Assembly (NCBI GenBank): GCA_951406725.2
Contig: OX597826.1
Location: forward strand, 56,234,001 to 56,298,000
Origin: Octopus vulgaris
Lineage: Eukaryota
Length of the DNA: 64,000 bases
Direction: 5' to 3'
Position 1 is the stretch's first letter. Every line of letters starts with the position of its first letter. This document shows, in pieces, positions 23,595 through 54,760 of the stretch. The notes under the pieces are model-generated. The model had not been told where the DNA came from and searched no databases. It saw only the letters and a program-made list of their open reading frames with translations. Both the position numbers and the translations under genes were made by a program.

Positions 23595-23690
23595 AAAAGG
23601 CTGGATGGTATATCAGCCGAAACGTTGTGTTAACAACAAACAAGATGAAGACAAATATCCGTCGAATGTAAATAATGTAAATAATGAAAA
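23595..23690 (+). mobile_element. 5'-truncated Penelope-like terminus with half hammerhead
   Basis: GGCUG..CAGCC GAAACGUU directly after a TA tract. CUGANGA is missing. Confidence 0.5.
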
Positions 23691-23739
23691 TTGTGTAATT
23701 AAAGAAAAATTTAAACAAAGAATGAACAAAAAAAAGAAA

Positions 23740-26532
23740 AGCGTGGCATTTTTCATATACCACCGTAGGCTATTTTCCTCTGCTTTCATACAGTCTTGGC
23801 AACTGATCAAAGCTCTCCCGCCCTTTCTTCTGGACAAGTACAGCCTATCGGTGTCACTCTTAGAGTGGAACGCTCCGTGTACTGTCAACATTTTTCTGGT
23901 CTTGTTATCCATTTTCTTCACTTCTCTCTTTTGCCATTTTATAATTCCCACTCCATACCGAAATGATGTTATCGCCCACGTATTAACTGCTTGGATTTTA
24001 TTCCAGTCAGTCAATTTTGAGCACTACACCAACCTCAGTCTTCGGAAATATTCTATCTTCAGTTGCTCTTTCATTTCCTTTTCCACTATCTCGTTGGACC
24101 CTAGTTCACCAAGGTATTTGTTTTCTTCCTTATCAATTTGCTTAATTTGCTTAATTTGCTTAATTTTGTCCCTGCTATGGACTGTGCTTTACCTCTTTTT
24201 AGGTAAATTATCCCGCACGTCTTGAATCCAAATTCCATTCTAATATCAGTACTAAAATAGTGGACCGTGTTCAGCAAGGAACTCACTTGTGTCTCATCTT
24301 TGCCATACAGTTTCAAATCATAAATGAAGTGAAAGTGATTGATTGTTTGGGAATTTTCCTTTAGTTTATATCCCAGGTGCATTTTCCTAACAACCAAGGT
24401 CAGGGGGCAGCATGCAGAGAACAAAAAGCAACAGAGATAGGCTATCACCCTGGAAAATACCTCTTCTGATACCTAGGATGCCCAAGCTTTTTCCTTAAGA
24501 GGTCCGTTCAGTTTTCCATCCTACCATACTTCTCTTCAGGAAACACGTTTCATTCCTCGCAGTTCCACACAGATCTAAACACTCGATGATCCACGGATGT
24601 GGAATCATATCATTGCGATAGTTAATCTAGGCCATTCCCAAATTTATTCTCCTTCGTTTACAATTCTTGCATCACTATTTTGTCTGTCAATAGTTGACCT
24701 TTGGTACCACTGCATCTCATTCTACAGCATTTTTGTTCCATCGGTAACAACGCCTTTTTGTTTCTACTCTAGCCACAAGGCCCGTAATTTTGAGGGAGGG
24801 GACTAGTAGATTAGATCGACCCCAGTACGTAACTGGTGTTTAATTTATTGACCCCGAAAGGATGAAAGGCAAAGTCGACCTCAGCGGAATTTGAACCCAG
24901 AACGTTCCTGCCAGCTCGCCGTCGGTAACATATCTTTCTCATCAAGAAATGTATACAGTCCTTCTGCAATTCCTCCTGACAGTAACTTCCACATTAATGG
25001 GTGGCATGAAATTACTTTGTAACTGTCAGCAGCATTTCCCTTTGATTCATCCTTCAGGTACAACACCGTTCGTCCTTTTGTCAACCAGCCCAGGATTTCT
25101 GCTTCTCCATTGATCAATGCATTAAATTGCTCTGCGATCAATTTATGGCAACTGTTGAACTTTTCCATCCCAAATCCCTGTACACCATCAGGTCCTGCTA
25201 CTTTCCAATTGCTTGTCTTTTTACTCATATTTTTGATATTACCATCTGTGAAGTGGATAGCCTGTTGTTGGAGATAAGAAGCTGTTTGCTTCAGGCTGCA
25301 GAGCTATACAGCTGTTGTATTATGTTGTTCTTGCTTACTCCATATCTGACCCCAGAAAAGTCGAATTTCATCAGCATCAGGGACTAATCTTTCACGTATT
25401 TTATCATCATTACTCTCTTGGTAAAATCTTTTTTGGTTGGTTCTAAACAATTTGCTTTGCTGGCATTGCTTAATCCGTTGTTCAAAGCTAATTAGCTTTG
25501 CTTTTTTTTCATGTATGCACAGCTTCAGTTCTTCAGTTACAACATTGAAGCCTTTTGTATCTACACCATACTTCTTAAATCCTTAAATCCTTAAAAATGT
25601 TTTAGCTCGAAGGCCGTGGCCATGCTGGGGCACCACCGAATTTCCATTCATTCTTACATTCTCCATTTCTTTTCCTGACAAGTATCAACACTACACTGTC
25701 CAAGGGGTTTATATCTTCAGAAATTCTCCTTTTCCACCACGGTTGTTTATTTCCTCTTCTATCCGTCGTTGTTCTATCATCATTAGTTTTCAGTCCCATC
25801 CTTTCCACCAGAATCTTACCAGCAGCCTCAATAAGATTATTTGTGTGTGTGATGTTCTTTGTTTCAATACGTTTCAATACATTATTGACTTTACTCGTCT
25901 CTTGATTTAGTCTCCATTGGTTAGCCTTCTTAAAGTCGCACATAAATTCTGTCCCTTCTGTATTTAATAGATCCACAATTCTTTCTACTATCAATCGATC
26001 TTCATTATTTGAGTAGTCTCTGATCTCAATTCGTTCACAATTCACGGTATTATATTCTTGGGAACAATTGTCCATCTCTTCCACTATAACGTTTTCGTTT
26101 CCCGCATGCCCAGCATCACCCGATGTCCTTCTTTTAATAGCTCCTAGCTCTAATTCGGTTAACCATTCATTCTTTCGTATTGCCCTTGCTTGGTCGCATA
26201 ATCTCTGTTCAGTAATTTCAAACAGTTCCATTGCCTCCCATTCACTGTGCATTCATTTTCCGTACTCTCTGACAGGCACGCCATTCGCATCGACTACGGT
26301 GCTCCGGTAGCAACACTCCATAACCATCATGATTATTTGTGTACTCCTCTTTTTTCTTGTAGCATGGCTAGCAGTTGCTGGATTAAGACTGGGCCCTCTC
26401 TACTGCACACCTCATTTGTGAGTGAAGATGCCAAGCAAAATAGATGACGATAACGGTGTGAACGGGACTGGTGAAGGTGCCGCACTCGGAAGGTGCTCCA
26501 CTGTGCAGCAGAGTGGGCCCAGTCTTAATCCA
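23740..26532 (-). mobile_element. Decayed R4/Dong-type non-LTR retrotransposon
   Basis: RLCDQARAIRKNEWL, QPWWKRRI, NWKVAGPDGVQG, GIFQGDSL, INHFHFIYDLKLY, NKIQAVNTWA and HSKSDTDRLYLSRRKGGR, with many frameshifts. Confidence 0.85.
24770..24922 (-). mobile_element. SINE family B inside the R4/Dong element
   Basis: cacaaggcc..atcgaccccag..ccccgaaaggatgaaaggcaaagtcgacctc..gccagctcgccg. Confidence 0.85.
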
Positions 26533-30422: not shown

Positions 30423-30525
30423 ACGTGTGGTAAGAAGCCTATTTCCCAACTACATGGTTCCGGGTTCACTCCTACGGCGCGGCATCTTGGGGGCAAATGC
30501 CTTATGCGTGTATATGCGAGTGTGT

Positions 30526-30593
<68 letters not shown>

Positions 30594-30800
30594 TTTGTGC
30601 CTGCGTTTGTCCCCAACCACCGCTTGACAACCGGTGTTGGTGTGTTTACCTACCCGAAAACTAGCGGTTGTGCAAAAGTGACCAATAGAATAAGTTCTAG
30701 GATTTTAAAAGATATGTACTGGCATCGATTATGTCGATGGAAAATCTTCTACACGATGACCCAGCACGGCCGCAGTCAAACGACAAAAGCAAGTGAAAAA
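30423..30800 (+). mobile_element. SINE family A, degraded, with (TG)n interior
   Basis: gtgtggtaagaagc..ggttccgggttca..cgcttgacaaccggtgttggtgtg..ggccgcagtcaa. Confidence 0.75.
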
Positions 30801-30870: not shown

Positions 30871-32101
30871 TGTGCTCCGTTTGCCTTCAGGCACTTGTTC
30901 CACAGCCAGCCTATACTCAACTCGTCCTGTCGAAAGACGCTTGTCCTGACGTCCTGGTTTTGTTATTGTTTTTACGTTATTTTGTATTCCTATCCGTGCT
31001 ATCGTTATTGTTTTTACGTATTTTTGAATTTTTTTCGAGTAACATCGTCCGTTTTTCCGTCACCGTGTTGTATACTTTCGAGGTTTTCTTCCAAGGAATC
31101 TAATGCGACTGGCTTAGATTTCCCTTGGCGGGCTGCCCAGATTGGAGCAATCTCAAGATTAATCAGCCGAAATTGCGAAGATGATCTGGTTCTTGACTGA
31201 TGACTGAGAGCTTCGAAAGTCCCGTCTGTGTTGTTTTTTTGTCGTCTTCAAAATGTTTCACGTTCTTGTCCCAGTTTGTGTTTTTTTAACGTTTACATAT
31301 ATACACGGCGGCTACGTATCCTACCTTTTGACCCTATACTGTAAGTATATTACTCTCTAACATTGGTACGACTCGACTACACTGTCTCTCTTTTCCCCCC
31401 TCTCCTACTTTTCTCTGCCTTCACCCTTTGCACTCCCCTTGTTCTGTCTCTTTCCCTCTTTTTCTTCTCCTCCCTTGTTCCCCTTCTTTCTTTCTCCCTT
31501 CCTCCGTCCCTCCTCTCCCACATTTCTCTGCCTCTCAGACCTTATACCCCACTTGACCTGTCCCTTTCCCTCCCTTGCTTCTCTCTTCATCTGTCCCTTT
31601 CTCCCTTTTGTGCTCACGTGACCAGCTAGCTACTACTGCCTTTTCGCATCAAGTAGTTGGTGTGACCACACGTAATTGTTTGTGCTCCGTTTGCCTTCAG
31701 GCACTTGTTCCACAGCCAGCCTATACTCAACTCGTCCTGTCGAAAGACGCTTGTCCTGACGTCCTGGTTTTGTTATTGTTTTTACGTTATTTTGTATTCC
31801 TATCCGTGCTATCGTTATTGTTTTTACGTATTTTTGAATTTTTTTCGAGTAACATCGTCCGTTTTTCCGTCACCGTGTTGTATACTTTCGAGGTTTTCTT
31901 CCAAGGAATCTAATGCGACTGGCTTAGATTTCCCTTGGCGGGCTGCCCAGATTGGAGCAATCTCAAGATTAATCAGCCGAAATTGCGAAGATGATCTGGT
32001 TCTTGACTGATGACTGAGAGCTTCGAAAGTCCCGTCTGTGTTGTTTTTTTGTCGTCTTCAAAATGTTTCACGTTCTTGTCCCAGTTTGTGTTTTTTTTAA
32101 C

Positions 32102-32108
<7 letters not shown>
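30871..32108 (+). mobile_element. Non-coding element with two ~427-bp direct repeats (period 810 bp), ending in (TA)n
   Basis: 30871-31297 and 31681-32108 are identical by eye except for one T-run length. The spacer is pyrimidine-rich and has no credible ORF. Confidence 0.85.
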
Positions 32109-32193
<85 letters not shown>

Positions 32194-32447
32194 ATATATA
32201 TATATATCACTGTGTGTATGTACTTATGTTTTGAATATATTATATTTGTGTCTGGTCGTTCATGTGTGTGTGTCTGTGTGTGTGTGTGTGTGTGGTGTGA
32301 TATGTTATATCTATTACCTCGTTTCTTCCCTGTTAGCCACTCCAAACAGAGGCATGACATGTCGCTAAGACGAATTAGCCTATCATTTACTCCACAAATG
32401 TTTTGTCATCAATGCTGCACTTTCCCGAATCACCTGTTTCAGCATAA

Positions 32448-33186: not shown

Positions 33187-33661
33187 GTAACAACAACAGC
33201 AACAACATTGTCAGCATGGGAACAAAACTATACATTTTAGAGAAAGATATTGAAGATTATATCAACTATAGTAGTTAACAAAATAATTTAACGACATTTG
33301 AAGACTGAAGGCAAGCTCAACCTTTAGGAATAGAGCAGAGGAACATAACTAAATATCCAAAGACATTTCACCAACCTGCTGTCTATTTTACTACAAGTTT
33401 ATCTTTATGAGAATATTTGTTAATCGGTTTAACCAACTACTATTAGTTAACCTGTACGATTTAAACGACTGATGCTTAATTAGTTTTATACTCTTACACA
33501 TGGAGATGAAACACAAAGTCAGCCTCTTAGGAATTTGATTTCAGAACGTAAAGGAACAAAGCAAAATACTACAATACGGCAGCATTTTCTTACATGGCAG
33601 AAGTGAGGCATGTTGTACGACAGTACAACGTTTTATCTCTTTCAAACAGAACGTATATATA

Positions 33662-34228
33662 CGAGGGTGAGTCAAAAAGTAATGACATTTTGTTTAGGAC
33701 GGGTATAATTACCAACACAGGAACATGTATCATACATCAAAATGAGGCTGGTCCTCTGTGTGTACACATCCCTACTTCTCTACATAGTCACCGTTTCTCT
33801 CAATAGCAATGTTCCACCTTCGAATGAGAGCATGTATCGCTGCCCCGTAAAAGTCTGTTGACTGTTCTTTGAGCCACTTCTTCACTACAGTTTTCACTTC
33901 CTCGTCACTGGACTATCATTGTCGCTGGACTATTATCTCTTCGGCCCCATGAAAGAGGGTTTGAGAGGCAAACATTATTCCAGTGACGATGAAGTGAAAA
34001 CTGTAGTGAAGAAGTGGCTCAAACAACAGTCAACAGAATTTTACGGGGCAGGGAAACATGCTCTCATTCGAAGGTGGAACATTGCTATTGAGAGAAACGA
34101 TGACTATGTTAAGAAGTAGGGATGTGGTCCACAGAGGACCAGCCTCATTTTGATGTATGATACATGTTCCTCTGTTGGTATTTATACCTGTCCTAAGCAA
34201 AATGACATTACTTTTTGACTCACCCTCG
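33662..34228. mobile_element. Mariner-derived foldback MITE, both arms from the 3' end
   Basis: TA-cgagggtgagtcaaaaagtaatg / cattactttttgactcaccctcg-TA with ~250-bp inverted arms. Encodes DYYLFGPMKEGLRGKHYSSDDEVK..WL..FY..G..ALIRRW. Confidence 0.92.
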
Positions 34229-34459
34229 TATGATATTCAATTGTAATTTCAGTCGGTAACGATCTCTCTTTCTTAGTCAGGTTACATCTCCTCTCAAAGT
34301 GACGTTTCAACACATCTTTCTATACGATGACCCTATGGATAGTTTATTTCTACTGTTTTTTTTATTTTTTTTAATGTGATAATGGGGTTAAATCATAAGC
34401 ATTTTTCGTCATTTTATGCTCTTTATTTCAGAGAGTTTTTTTTAAACTTTTTTAAATGC

Positions 34460-34870
34460 TGCACAGGAGTGGCTGTGTGGTAAGTAGCTTGCTAACTAAC
34501 CACATGGTTACGGGTTCAGTCCCACTGCGTGGCACCTTGGGCAAGTGTCTTCTATTATAGCCCCGGGCCGACCAATGCCTTGTGAGTGGATTTGGTAGAC
34601 GGAAACTGAAAGAAGCCCGTCGTATATATGTATATATATATATGCGTGTGTGTGTCTGTGTTTGTCCCCCCTAGCATTGCTTGACAACCGATGCTGGTGT
34701 GTTTACGTCCCCGTCACTTAGCGGTTCGGCAAAAGTGACCGATAAAATAAGTACTGGGCTTACAAAGAATAAGTCCTAGGGTCAATTTACTCGACTAGAA
34801 GGCGGTGCTCCAGCATGGCCGCAGTCAAATGACTGAAACAAGTAAAAGAGTAAAAAGAGCAAAAGAGTAA
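34460..34870 (+). mobile_element. Full-length SINE family A
   Basis: Same layout as 26636-27052. Confidence 0.92.
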
Positions 34871-37788: not shown

Positions 37789-39350
37789 CAGTAGCACCCG
37801 AAATATAAGGGTCAGAAAGTACAAGTGTATTTATTTTAGAAGATTGATTAAACATTGAGACTAGATATTTTACACATATTTAGATATATTAAATATCTAT
37901 ATTTCGTGAAAATTTCAAGTGAACGGAATAAATATTTCGTATGTTATGAGGAAATAAACAAATAGTCTTCCAAACTGCAACGCCCAGAAGTTAAGGGTCA
38001 TTTATAAAAACAAGGAAAAATGAATATGAACAAAAAAGAAACCCTTACTATTAATACATTGTGAACATCCCTTTACTATCAATGACTTCCTGACATCTTT
38101 TACCACAGGAATGAATTAATTTCTTGCAAACTGATGAAATAATATTGTTCCATTCATTTTGCATAATTCCCAGAGTTCATTTTGGATCTTTGGATTTCTC
38201 CTTTGCGTCCCACTTTCAATAATCTTCCAAACGTTTTCTATAACGTTGAGATCGGGACTCTGAGGTGGCCAGTCCATGAGATCAACCCTTTCATCACTCA
38301 AAAAATCTGTGACTCTCTTCGCAATATGACAGGGAGCGTTGTCCTGCACGAAGATAGGAGGTTCAACTGACGAGGATCGGAGATATGGAAGGTCATGCAG
38401 TCTAAGAATCTGCTTGTAGATTTCAGCATTGACAGTCCCTTGTAGGCGAATAAGTGGACAAGGACCAGCAGCAGAGATCACTTCCAATACCGTTACACTG
38501 CATCCTCCATATTTCCCTGTCTTCTTCACACATGCACGAGATAACCTTTCGCAACTTCTTCGTCGGATATACATCCCGCTATCGGAACCAATTACATTAA
38601 ACTTCGATTCATCGCTAAAATGAACCTGCGACCACCGTTCTTCTGTCCAAATGACATGTTCGTAAGCGAAACGAAGACGGGCTATTTGATTCTCCTTGGA
38701 GATCAGATGTTTCTTTGCTGGCGCCCGAGCAAGCAACCCAGAATATCGTAACATCCGAGAAACTGTTTTGCGCGATACGTTGACATCGGAAGTGGAGCTA
38801 AAACGCGAGATATCTCAGCAGCACTCTTAAACATATCCTTCAGTGACTTTTTAACCATAATATGATCCTGTGTTGCTGACGTTTTACAAGCTCTAGCGGT
38901 TTTGAGTTTAGCATCTGTTGATCCTGATGACTTAAAATGAGCTACAATTCATTGCACAACACCTTTAGACCTTCCTGCGATAGATGCTATCACAGAATTT
39001 GACTTGCTCTCTTGGTGAAGGCACACAATTCTTTGTTTTTCATCACAGGACACCAGTCCTCTCTCACAAGCTGCCATGTTGATAGTTGAATGTTCCAATA
39101 ACGTAAGATCATAAGAAATAACTATTTGCCCATTAACAGTCTTCTAAACAACAAATACCTCGGTTAGTAGTTCATTTTTCCTAAGTGACCCTTAAATTTT
39201 AAACGCTGCAATTTGGTAGATTGTTTGTTTATTTCCTCATAACTTACGAAATATTCATTCCATTCAATTACAATTTTCACGAAGGATAGATATTAAATGT
39301 ATCTAAATATTAATAAAATATCTAATCTCAACGTGTTGTTAATCTTTTAT
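37789..39350 (-). mobile_element. Tc1-family (DD34E) transposon with long IR/DR-type terminal repeats; transposase pseudogene at ~38060-39077
   Basis: FSDESKF, FVQDNAPCH and WPPQSPDLNVIENVW, with 34 residues from D to E. TA-CAGT terminus. 37789-38005 is inverted at ~39182-39350, with internal direct repeat ..taagggtca. Confidence 0.92.
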
Positions 39351-51749: not shown

Positions 51750-51952
51750 AATGTGATCGCGTGTGTACCGTTGGCGATTTTTTTCCCTCCGTCTTCCTTC
51801 CTTTGGATCTTTCCTTTTCCTATGTTTCTGACGAAGAGCTCCGCTCGAAACGTTAAATCCTCCTTCTTTCCTGAGCGTACAATAATACTATACTTGTTCC
51901 ACGTCCTCGCGTTGATGTGTTTTCTCTTTATGTTTTCATGTTTGGATTAACT
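51750..51952 (+). mobile_element. ~200-bp non-coding element with hammerhead motif
   Basis: Homologue of 20785-20995 with (TA)n on both sides. Confidence 0.75.
51824..51858 (+). ncRNA. Minimal type I hammerhead ribozyme motif, canonical core
   Basis: GUUU CUGACGA A GAGC-UCC-GCUC GAAA C GUU AAAU. Predicted cleavage after 51854. Confidence 0.75.
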
Positions 51953-53042: not shown

Positions 53043-54342
53043 TTATGGCTGCCCCCTCGTTATCGAGTATGGCCATTGCACGAAGCTTAACTGTTACTGG
53101 TGCTGTGATTGAATGTGACTTTTTAGCCCAGCTAAAGATCTACAATGTCTTGTACAAAATTGGCAATAGCTGGCTGTAGTTGTAACTGGGCTTCATGTAC
53201 CTTTGCGTGTCGTTTAAGTCCTCCTGCCGAATTACACTCTCTTCCACATCCCCGACAGATATGATTAGTATGGTGTGTTACACCACCACCAGTGACCAGG
53301 TTGTCACTCATCTGTCTCGTTTTATGACTACGAAGATGACTCTTGAGTCCAGCTTTACTGAGGCAGGGTCTTGCACAGGCATTGCATGTCAGCATCAAAG
53401 GAAGACCCTTCCCTTCTGGAAGGGTAACAGCGATGCCCTTCCTGACATCCCTCCTTACTTTCTCATGTGCAACTCGAGATTTCTCAAAAGTGGCTGTCCC
53501 CTCATGCACAATCCTTCTCCACCTGCTACGATCAATAGCTATGCCTTCCCATGTGTCAGGAGAGATGCAAGCATCCGTTTAGTAAGCCTTCAGCAAGTCC
53601 TTATACCTCTCTTTTTGTTTATGTGGAGGTCGTTTTCCTTTAGCTAACTCTCCATAAAAGAGTTGTTTTGGCATCCTTGAATTCTTCATTCTGACCAGAT
53701 GACCACTCCATCTGAGCCTTTGCTTTAACACAAGAGCTTCTATACTTTCACACCGAGAGCCTTCCAATATTTCAAGATCACTGATGCGGTCCTTCCACTT
53801 AATGCCATAGATCTGTCTGAGGCACATCTGATGGAAACGTTCCAGTTGTTTAAGGTGGTATCGATATGTGACCCACGTCTCGCAAGCATAGAGAAGAGAA
53901 GGGAGCACACATGCCTTGTACACCTTTATCTTTGTCTTTCTGCATATGTCTCGCCGACTCCAGAGGCGCTTTTCTAGCCTTCGGAAAGCAACACTTGCTT
54001 TCCTAATTCTATATGGAATTTCATCATCCACATTGCCATATCTATTAATAGTGCTTCCCAGGTAGACAAACTGATCAACTAAATCAAATCGTTTACCATA
54101 CACATAGATATTTGGTACACTATACTGCTTACCAGGGGCAGGTTGATGCATGACAACAGTTTTCTTGAGATTGACTGTCAATCCTAAGGCAGTGCAAGCA
54201 TCAGAGAATGCATTCAAAATGTGTTGCATATCAATCTGTGTGTGTGCTACTAGCTCACAATCATCTGCATACAAAAGGTCTCTTATGATAGAAGTAAATA
54301 CCTTTGTTTTTGCAGCAAGGTGCTTGTGCAGTTTCTGAATGC
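53043..54342 (-). mobile_element. 5'-truncated RTE-clade LINE (RT C-terminal half plus two C2H2 fingers), one premature stop
   Basis: LLYADDCELVAH, FVYLGSTI, LLYACETW, LRWSGHLVRM and PKQLFYGEL. ORFs 53579-54469 and 53132-53509 are in the same frame. Fingers CNACARPCLSKAGLKSHLRSH and CRGCGRECNSAGGLKRHAKVH. Confidence 0.92.
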
Positions 54343-54760
54343 AATACATACATGCATGCATACGTACATACATACATGCATGCATACATACATACATGCA
54401 TACACATACATACACATACATACATACATACATACATACATACATACATACATACATACATACATACATACAACAGTTGAGATCCGGAGATTCTGGACAA
54501 AAGAATGGCTATAGTACTTTGCGTAAAATGGATCTAATAATGTAAATATCTACATATACATACGTATAAATAGATTTATATGTAAATAGCAAGTCGAAAA
54601 ACTCTTTTGAATATAAAAAGTAGAAGGCTGCCACTGGGGCCCATGGGCAACTTTCGATTTTTTTTCTGTCCAAAAGAGTTTTCCAACCTAATAGTCGCAT
54701 GCTATTACTTTCAAAACCAATAAACAAAAAATTATCTATCTACTCATTTACGAGATAGAT

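Follow-up and report, generated by a model that had tools for sequence, protein, structure and literature searches.

Two direct repeats, at 30871-31297 (427 bp) and 31681-32108 (428 bp), were found in the window, by which we mean the whole 64-kb stretch of Octopus vulgaris DNA that was analysed. Their sole difference is one T within a T run. They flank a spacer of 383 bp (31298-31680) without a credible open reading frame, and each contains the motif CUGAUGA, at 31197 and 32007. The near identity of the repeats, their 810-nt period, the hammerhead-like motif in each of them and the non-coding spacer had been described in a first-pass annotation and were all reproduced. Its statement that each repeat ends in TA repeats holds for the second one, which runs into a (TA)n target array (32108-32207, + strand), but not for the first, at whose 3' end stand three TA units only. 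These units (TATATA, 31298-31303, +) belong to an internal junction that is constant in the family, TTTAC-TATATA-CAYGGCGGC, with 57 exact matches genome-wide; they mark the start of the tail region and probably the region in which reverse transcription initiates. The locus thus consists of a 5'-truncated upstream copy of a monomer (30871-31297, +), the length of which differs between loci, and a complete non-coding monomer composed of the spacer and the second repeat (31298-32108, +), ending in ...ACGTTTACA. No Rfam family matched at its gathering score anywhere in the 64-kb window, no hammerhead family was obtained over either repeat at E<=10, and the folding z-scores of the whole repeats were not significant.

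Other elements were noted in the window. Two diverged copies (75-79%) of a tRNA-like SINE are located at 30425-30737 and 34475-34794, and we take them to resemble the octopus OK/OR family. A long inverted repeat at 33659-34231, with arms of 151 nt (94%) and 102 nt (95%), is MITE-like. The stretches at 38116-38814, 53579-54508 and 23613-26252 (all on the - strand) presumably represent fragments of Tc1/mariner-like transposase and LINE-type reverse transcriptase (RT) frames, names that were assigned from motifs. At 51820-51860 (+) there is a Penelope-type hammerhead motif of the canonical minimal type I form (CUGACGA, 4-bp stem II, GAAACGUUA).

The repeat and the spacer were both found throughout the 2.8-Gb host genome, which is rich in microsatellites, and they were found together. 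Recurrence of the repeat-spacer-repeat arrangement, a check suggested by the first-pass annotation, was observed on many contigs and therefore excludes a local duplication or an assembly artefact; no contig spanning the locus was found, and no empty site was shown. The unit of the family is the 810-nt monomer. Its 3' end is fixed and in nearly all cases enters (TA)n, and its 5' end is variable. Exact probe matches numbered 176 for the youngest subfamily, 997 for the 3' motif and 4,207 for the core. Of 51 junction loci that were fetched, 37 continue into a full monomer and 14 into a tail or a break. The upstream partials of the 37 tandem loci vary in length between about 25 and more than 700 nt. 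Six loci (L202, L218, L224, L226, L298 and L306) have tails of some 35-55 nt, and one locus (L061/L099) showed an inverted 5' copy. The flanks, in which a 4-bp target site duplication was looked for, are TA-rich. Long members were observed down to ~75% identity, and every one of them is non-coding and has the same layout. Family sequence also occurs in contigs assembled from runs that are presumably RNA, although contigs of this kind cannot reveal ends, strand or level.

In 22 pairs, repeats within a locus diverged by a mean of 0.9% substitutions compared to a median of 4.3% to other loci, and in 16 of them the distance between the two repeats did not exceed that to the nearest other locus. 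The earlier description as a very recent non-autonomous retroelement is supported. The Penelope-like hallmarks listed in the consulted sections of Craig 2021 (PMC8557442) match the insertion pattern of this family, and internal initiation is given as the explanation of the tail in the part of Frangieh 2024 that we used. Judged from its sequence, the 810-nt family is a non-autonomous Penelope-like element (PLE) targeting (TA)n, and the locus is a single recent insertion of a truncated and a full copy inside a TA microsatellite. The 427-bp repeat is a pseudo-LTR, one draw from variable upstream partials, and not an LTR, because the fixed 3' end, the variable upstream partials, the tails and the inversions are Penelope-like traits; 5' truncation and partial tandems likewise agree with the Penelope-type partial tandem considered previously.

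Related elements are known. According to the sections of Craig 2021 (PMC8557442) covered here, the Chlamys MRC1-type elements, once taken for LTR elements, are similarly non-coding PLE satellites with pseudo-LTRs and head-to-tail copies; they have 3' sequence in common with an autonomous family, whereas none was found for the 810-nt family. Animal non-LTR retrozymes, as far as described in the portion of Cervera and de la Pena 2020 (PMC7229834) at hand, are likewise non-coding, ribozyme-bearing and tandem-prone, with a proposed dependence on PLEs. They carry type I hammerheads in units of mostly 170-400 nt, and circles were shown for them. The 810-nt family also consists of non-coding tandem units, each with a predicted ribozyme, but differs in its predicted permuted ribozyme and in its mostly truncated single copies. 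Its unit falls in the 51-972 bp range given in the consulted part of Li et al. 2026 (bioRxiv 10.64898/2026.07.22.740005).

A conserved block of the monomer (31612-31763, +) contains small hairpins (GCC-loop-GGC and GUC-GNAA-GAC) and an invariant TCACGTGAC; among 17 diverged copies, no double-sided change was found in it on the + strand. The predicted ribozyme domain was delimited by a base-pairing descriptor and by covariation and is present at 31074-31220 (copy 1, +) and, with the layout shifted by 810 nt, at 31884-32030 (copy 2, +; GAAA 31979-31982, CUGAUGA 32007-32013). An invariant CGAAAUUGC lies upstream of CUGAUGA and supplies the working GAAA, and the order within the domain is site, GAAA, CUGAUGA. 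The descriptor for this order had just two matches in the 64-kb window, at 31152 and 31962, and none in 3.84 Mb of shuffled window; since it was written after the motif had been seen, its value lies in the background rate and in the further families found. It gives exactly the cut nucleotides that had been proposed before. These predicted sites are one period apart, as claimed for the 810-nt cut-to-cut unit, and the corresponding RNA would extend from 31153 to 31962 (+).

In copy 1 (all elements +), the predicted cut follows C31152, which is preceded by stem III (31147-31151:31172-31176, GCAAU:AUUGC) and followed by stem I (31153-31158:31191-31196, UCAAGA:UCUUGA), the latter directly 5' of CUGAUGA (31197-31203). 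For stem II (31131-31135:31164-31168), CAGCC before GAAA (31169-31172) pairs with an upstream GGCUG in 124-128 of 132 copies per pair. The strand that follows A9 would instead enter a 15-bp outer helix (31074-31088:31206-31220) which closes the domain together with a hairpin (31091-31128). A further helix, I/NC (31137-31143:31183-31189), ties the far sides of stems I and II; it was paired in 89% of cells. Pair 652-700 was mismatched in about half of the copies. As a side observation, 20 of 183 family copies have lost 5 nt or more from the stretch separating the core from the 3' end (window equivalent 32010-32070), often across the outer-helix arm.

Across 27 diverged copies, 93.6% of the cells of a 50-pair model were paired, with seven doubly changed pairs; at most one of 500 shuffles scored as high (0-1/500), and slid controls reached 28-51%. 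Five of the doubly changed pairs are in the outer helix, one is in stem I and one in the tying helix. Stems I, II and III were paired in 97.5%, 96.3% and 99.3% of cells, respectively, and for stems II and III no double-sided change was found inside the family in these 27 copies. The core nucleotides C3, U4, G5, A6, G8, A9, G12, A13, A14, A15.1 and U16.1 were each present in 95-96 of 96 distinct copies, an invariance that in the GAAA columns is partly by construction, as many copies were chosen by an exact 20-mer over GAAA. N7 varies freely in the same copies, and H17 is C or A. In pseudoknot-free folding of the window copy, pair probabilities were 0.96 for the outer helix, 0.87 for the hairpin and 0.38 for stem I, but only 0.08-0.09 for stems II, III and NC, which this folding does not support.

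Beyond stem III (31145-31146 with 31177-31181, +), a 3-nt variable bulge is followed by A.G (93 of 96 copies), G.A (93 of 96) and the 7-bp tying helix. A standard k-turn is described in the consulted section of PMC5061560 as a 3-nt bulge, then G.A and A.G, between two helices. Stem III of the 810-nt family accordingly ends in a predicted standard k-turn motif, which would bend it into the helix that connects stems I and II at their far ends.

The hammerhead at this locus is not type I, II or III. We predict from pairing and covariation that it is non-circularly permuted, in type-SGC order, with the core opened between A9 and G10.1 within the 15-bp covarying helix. Two other arrangements were rejected. 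Formation of stem II from the strand just after A9 would leave an A.C in the youngest subfamily and needs a 5-nt insert, and the upstream strand was adopted instead. A type I reading offers no cut site with a stem I partner downstream of GAAA, the order being S-G-C.

To our knowledge, non-circular RNA permutations have so far come only from environmental sequence and from one bacterial candidate; the core blocks of the hammerhead had hitherto been assumed to be unbreakable. As described in the consulted sections of Eckert 2023 (PMC10085705), type-SGC and type-CSG hammerheads come from metatranscriptomes and metagenomes, none of them from the genome of a known organism. The fold predicted here resembles these types in its core nucleotides, in the short linker between stems I and II and in the extra helix tying the far ends of these stems, and it has the block order of type SGC (site-GAAA-CUGAnGA). 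It differs from the account in those sections in that block C is there unbroken, with inserts of at most 1-2 nt, whereas here the stem II strand is detached and supplied from upstream; in addition, the closure of the domain by the outer 15-bp helix and hairpin, and the predicted k-turn joining stem III to the extra helix, belong to the fold predicted here.

The same fold with different, compensated stems was identified in three other families of this genome, including ends linked to Naiad RTs. Stem III is GCAAU/AUUGC in the 810-nt family versus AUGGU/ACCAU, UACGU/ACGUA and GCGGAU/AUCUGC in the others; stem I is UCAAGA/UCUUGA versus CUGCCC/GGGCAG, UCGC(U/C)/(A/G)GCGA and UCAGAA/UUCUGA. The upstream stem II strand was present in 115 of 127 matches of the 810-nt family, 22 of 27 of Naiad and 16 of 16 of family 3, and none of the matches of these three families contained a contiguous stem II strand after CUGAnGA (4-bp, 0/127 in the 810-nt family). 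In family 4, the tying helix shows a compensatory change peculiar to that family. A motif derived from the published Octopus Naiad ends gave 314 exact matches in this genome, and the two further families gave 1,162 and 336. These families 3 and 4 (L431-L460; L511-L530) are TA-associated repeats with the same permuted hammerhead and, at some loci, partial tandems.

The motif was found downstream of Naiad-type RT motifs at L387, L485 and L488 and in 5 of 20 further RT regions. L489, considered as a Naiad with this ribozyme, was rejected as an unrelated neighbouring insertion of family 4. In the passages of the Craig 2021 supplement (PMC8557442) that we viewed, the same layout is present at the 3' ends of Naiad_Obim and Naiad_Ovul, one of which carries the flag HHR_half_core. 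By eye, four nematode Naiad records in these passages (in file order Parc, Nbra-3, Hcon and Hpol) end in clean type-CSG folds and the squid end (Esco) has the order site-GAAA-CUGAUGA with a stem II that is not clear; at the other Naiad ends there, no fold was readable by eye. Naiads, described in the consulted text of the same paper as lacking canonical hammerheads, resemble the 810-nt family in (TA)n targets, partial tandems, tails and inversions, but encode EN-RT, whereas the 810-nt family is non-coding and has the fold but not the sequence in common with them. The fold links the two as far as its prediction goes, and points to Naiad descent.

If its RNA were cut after C31152, the RT would be expected to run off at this site. 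Seventeen of the 161 copies reaching the site end 5' within 8 nt after it, compared to 3.7 expected (P 3e-7). Of 189 copies, the 21 that had come up solely in a similarity ranking were excluded from this count. Where family sequence continued upstream of an end, that end was not taken as a truncation, and the background is raised by false ends at 562-569. Three of the four ends scored just upstream of the site are TA look-alikes of the same start. Genome-wide, 112 starts after a TA run fall right after the predicted cut versus 12 at 1-3 nt earlier, positions at which TA microhomology is better. Among 28 distinct loci examined, 23 start at most 4 nt after the predicted cut. In family 3, starts at its own predicted cut outnumber those before it by 10 to 1. 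For Naiad ends judged by eye, about 10-12 of 90 lie in the 13 nt after the cut and at most 2 in the 13 nt before; the corresponding count for family 4 (5 of 20 versus 2, by eye) is weak. The ribozyme thus likely cuts its RNA after C31152 and C31962, as far as genomic ends can tell, and the sharp pile-up provides indirect in vivo evidence on whether PLE hammerheads cut RNA that gets copied.

Taken together, we consider it probable that a recent 810-nt insertion in a TA microsatellite, likely made by a PLE RT-endonuclease, carries a predicted core-opened hammerhead that likely cuts after C31152 and C31962. A tandem or read-through transcript would be made, and the ribozyme would cut part of these RNAs at AUC, as the genomic 5' ends suggest. 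Tails and fixed 3' ends suggest that a PLE protein nicks (TA)n and that cDNA starts internally at TTTACA/tail. In about one copy in ten, copying would then stop at the cut, an outcome to which the inserts of ~146 nt seen in the DNA correspond. Reading through the site would produce the remainder, that is, the full monomers, the partial tandems and an array of ~4.4 units. About nine in ten copies read through; therefore, cutting would be partial or the ends rejoined, and read-through would require either an uncut multimer or a religated circle.

The second of these routes is a special case of the probable reading, in which the 810-nt RNA is ligated and rolling reverse transcription of the circle gives partial tandems and arrays. 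The upstream partials continue past the cut site, up to 4.4 units, with a subfamily-specific inherited junction, and such a model was proposed for PLEs (Cervera 2014) and shown for type I retrozymes. As multimeric linear transcripts from tandem loci yield the same DNA pattern, we put the circle forward only tentatively, at slightly less than an even chance.

We regard it as unlikely that the same Penelope-like element bears a fold which is a non-cutting protein-binding or folding relic, with the pile-up marking a transcription start or an RT stop at strong structure. The read-through of most copies fits such a relic, as do CCAAT-like and E-box motifs upstream. A Neptune-type family with a canonical minimal hammerhead, serving as a control, showed no pile-up (at most 1 of 30 copies, TA-rich and ambiguous). 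On the other hand, the edge coincides, in both families for which genome-wide counts were made, with the nucleotide that hammerhead geometry predicts, and all core nucleotides are kept while N7 varies freely. A capped Pol II start is expected to show an extra G; the commonest start nucleotide here is U or C, without an extra G. In the consulted part of Frangieh 2024, which speaks for the relic, cutting by the PAc hammerhead was dispensable in vitro and RNA-seq gave no read ends.

That the domain is an ordinary type III hammerhead, with the downstream GAAA (31215-31218) in its core, is very improbable. Stem I would be identical and the spacing of CUGAUGA, 11 nt and GAAA suits a simple core search, but this tetranucleotide reads GAAU in 65 of the 91 distinct copies, covaries with its partner strand in the 15-bp helix and forms no stem III. 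The alternation between GAAA and GAAU is structural, because outer-helix pair 589-731 swaps between A-U (69 of 132 copies) and U-A (50 of 132). Hardly tenable at all is an LTR-type element with 427-bp LTRs, whether a TRIM or a plant-like LTR retrozyme. It has in its favour TG...CA ends, near-identical repeats and the repeat-centre-repeat look and sizes of plant LTR retrozymes, but the varying repeat length already refutes it, and 5' truncations, tails and inversions are PLE traits. Plant LTR retrozymes have fixed LTRs, a PBS, a PPT, a 4-bp TSD, a type III ribozyme and a Ty3-gypsy partner (consulted sections of Cervera 2016, PMC4918200); of these, the fixed LTRs, PBS, PPT, type III ribozyme and Ty3-gypsy partner are not what the locus presents, neither a tRNA primer site nor a purine tract being visible by eye beside either repeat on either strand. 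The plant LTR-retrozyme comparison of the first-pass annotation is accordingly dropped, the spacer being the 5' part of the monomer.

What is new in the preferred reading, a cutting Penelope-like element, is a non-autonomous PLE carrying a permuted, core-opened predicted hammerhead, assembled from parts of known kinds. A core-opened or k-turn hammerhead in retrotransposons was not found in the openly accessible main texts that were searched. With slightly more confidence than doubt, we propose that an active architecture not yet in print (non-circularly permuted, opened at A9/G10.1, rejoined at the outer junction and braced by a k-turn) may be the missing Naiad ribozyme in its cephalopod form, nematode Naiads having type CSG; that thousands of genomic 5' ends may record germ-line cutting; and that parasitic non-coding families may replicate through cut, possibly circular, RNA. 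If true, the core-opened form in an animal genome extends ribozyme architecture and explains why Naiads were scored hammerhead-free. The 147-nt domain is a construct for a cleavage test and structure work.

With regard to the mobilising protein, the Naiad RT regions seen were all decayed, with a longest frame of 292 aa in 20 regions, in contrast to the nearly unmutated insertion at 30871-32108; this agrees with a remark on cephalopods in the consulted text of Craig 2021 (PMC8557442). Neptune-type elements have intact 781-aa frames with RT and GIY-YIG; they likewise terminate in TTTTTACA(A)(TA)n and have a tail. We give a Neptune-type protein an even chance of being the mobiliser, and an intact Naiad that escaped our view is a possibility rated a little below that mark. 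The subset of PLE families sampled (50 GIY-YIG, 30 Naiad-end and 50 Naiad-RT loci) gave no DNA match to the 810-nt family beyond neighbouring insertions. Neptune-type elements were rejected as the source of the 3' end, for which no DNA match was found, and PLE fragments beside some copies were rejected as partners, being merely neighbours in TA arrays.

The Neptune-type family (L168, L169, L311-L340) comprises many intact 781-aa frames and 801 exact 3'-end matches; its minimal hammerhead has a U3-A8 core, repeated CCAAT/CRE motifs occur in its 3' UTR, and its members have a 40-nt tail. At L034:880-1500, a copy of the 810-nt family directly adjoins a rearranged RT fragment of Neptune type with no TA between them, possibly as the result of a template switch.
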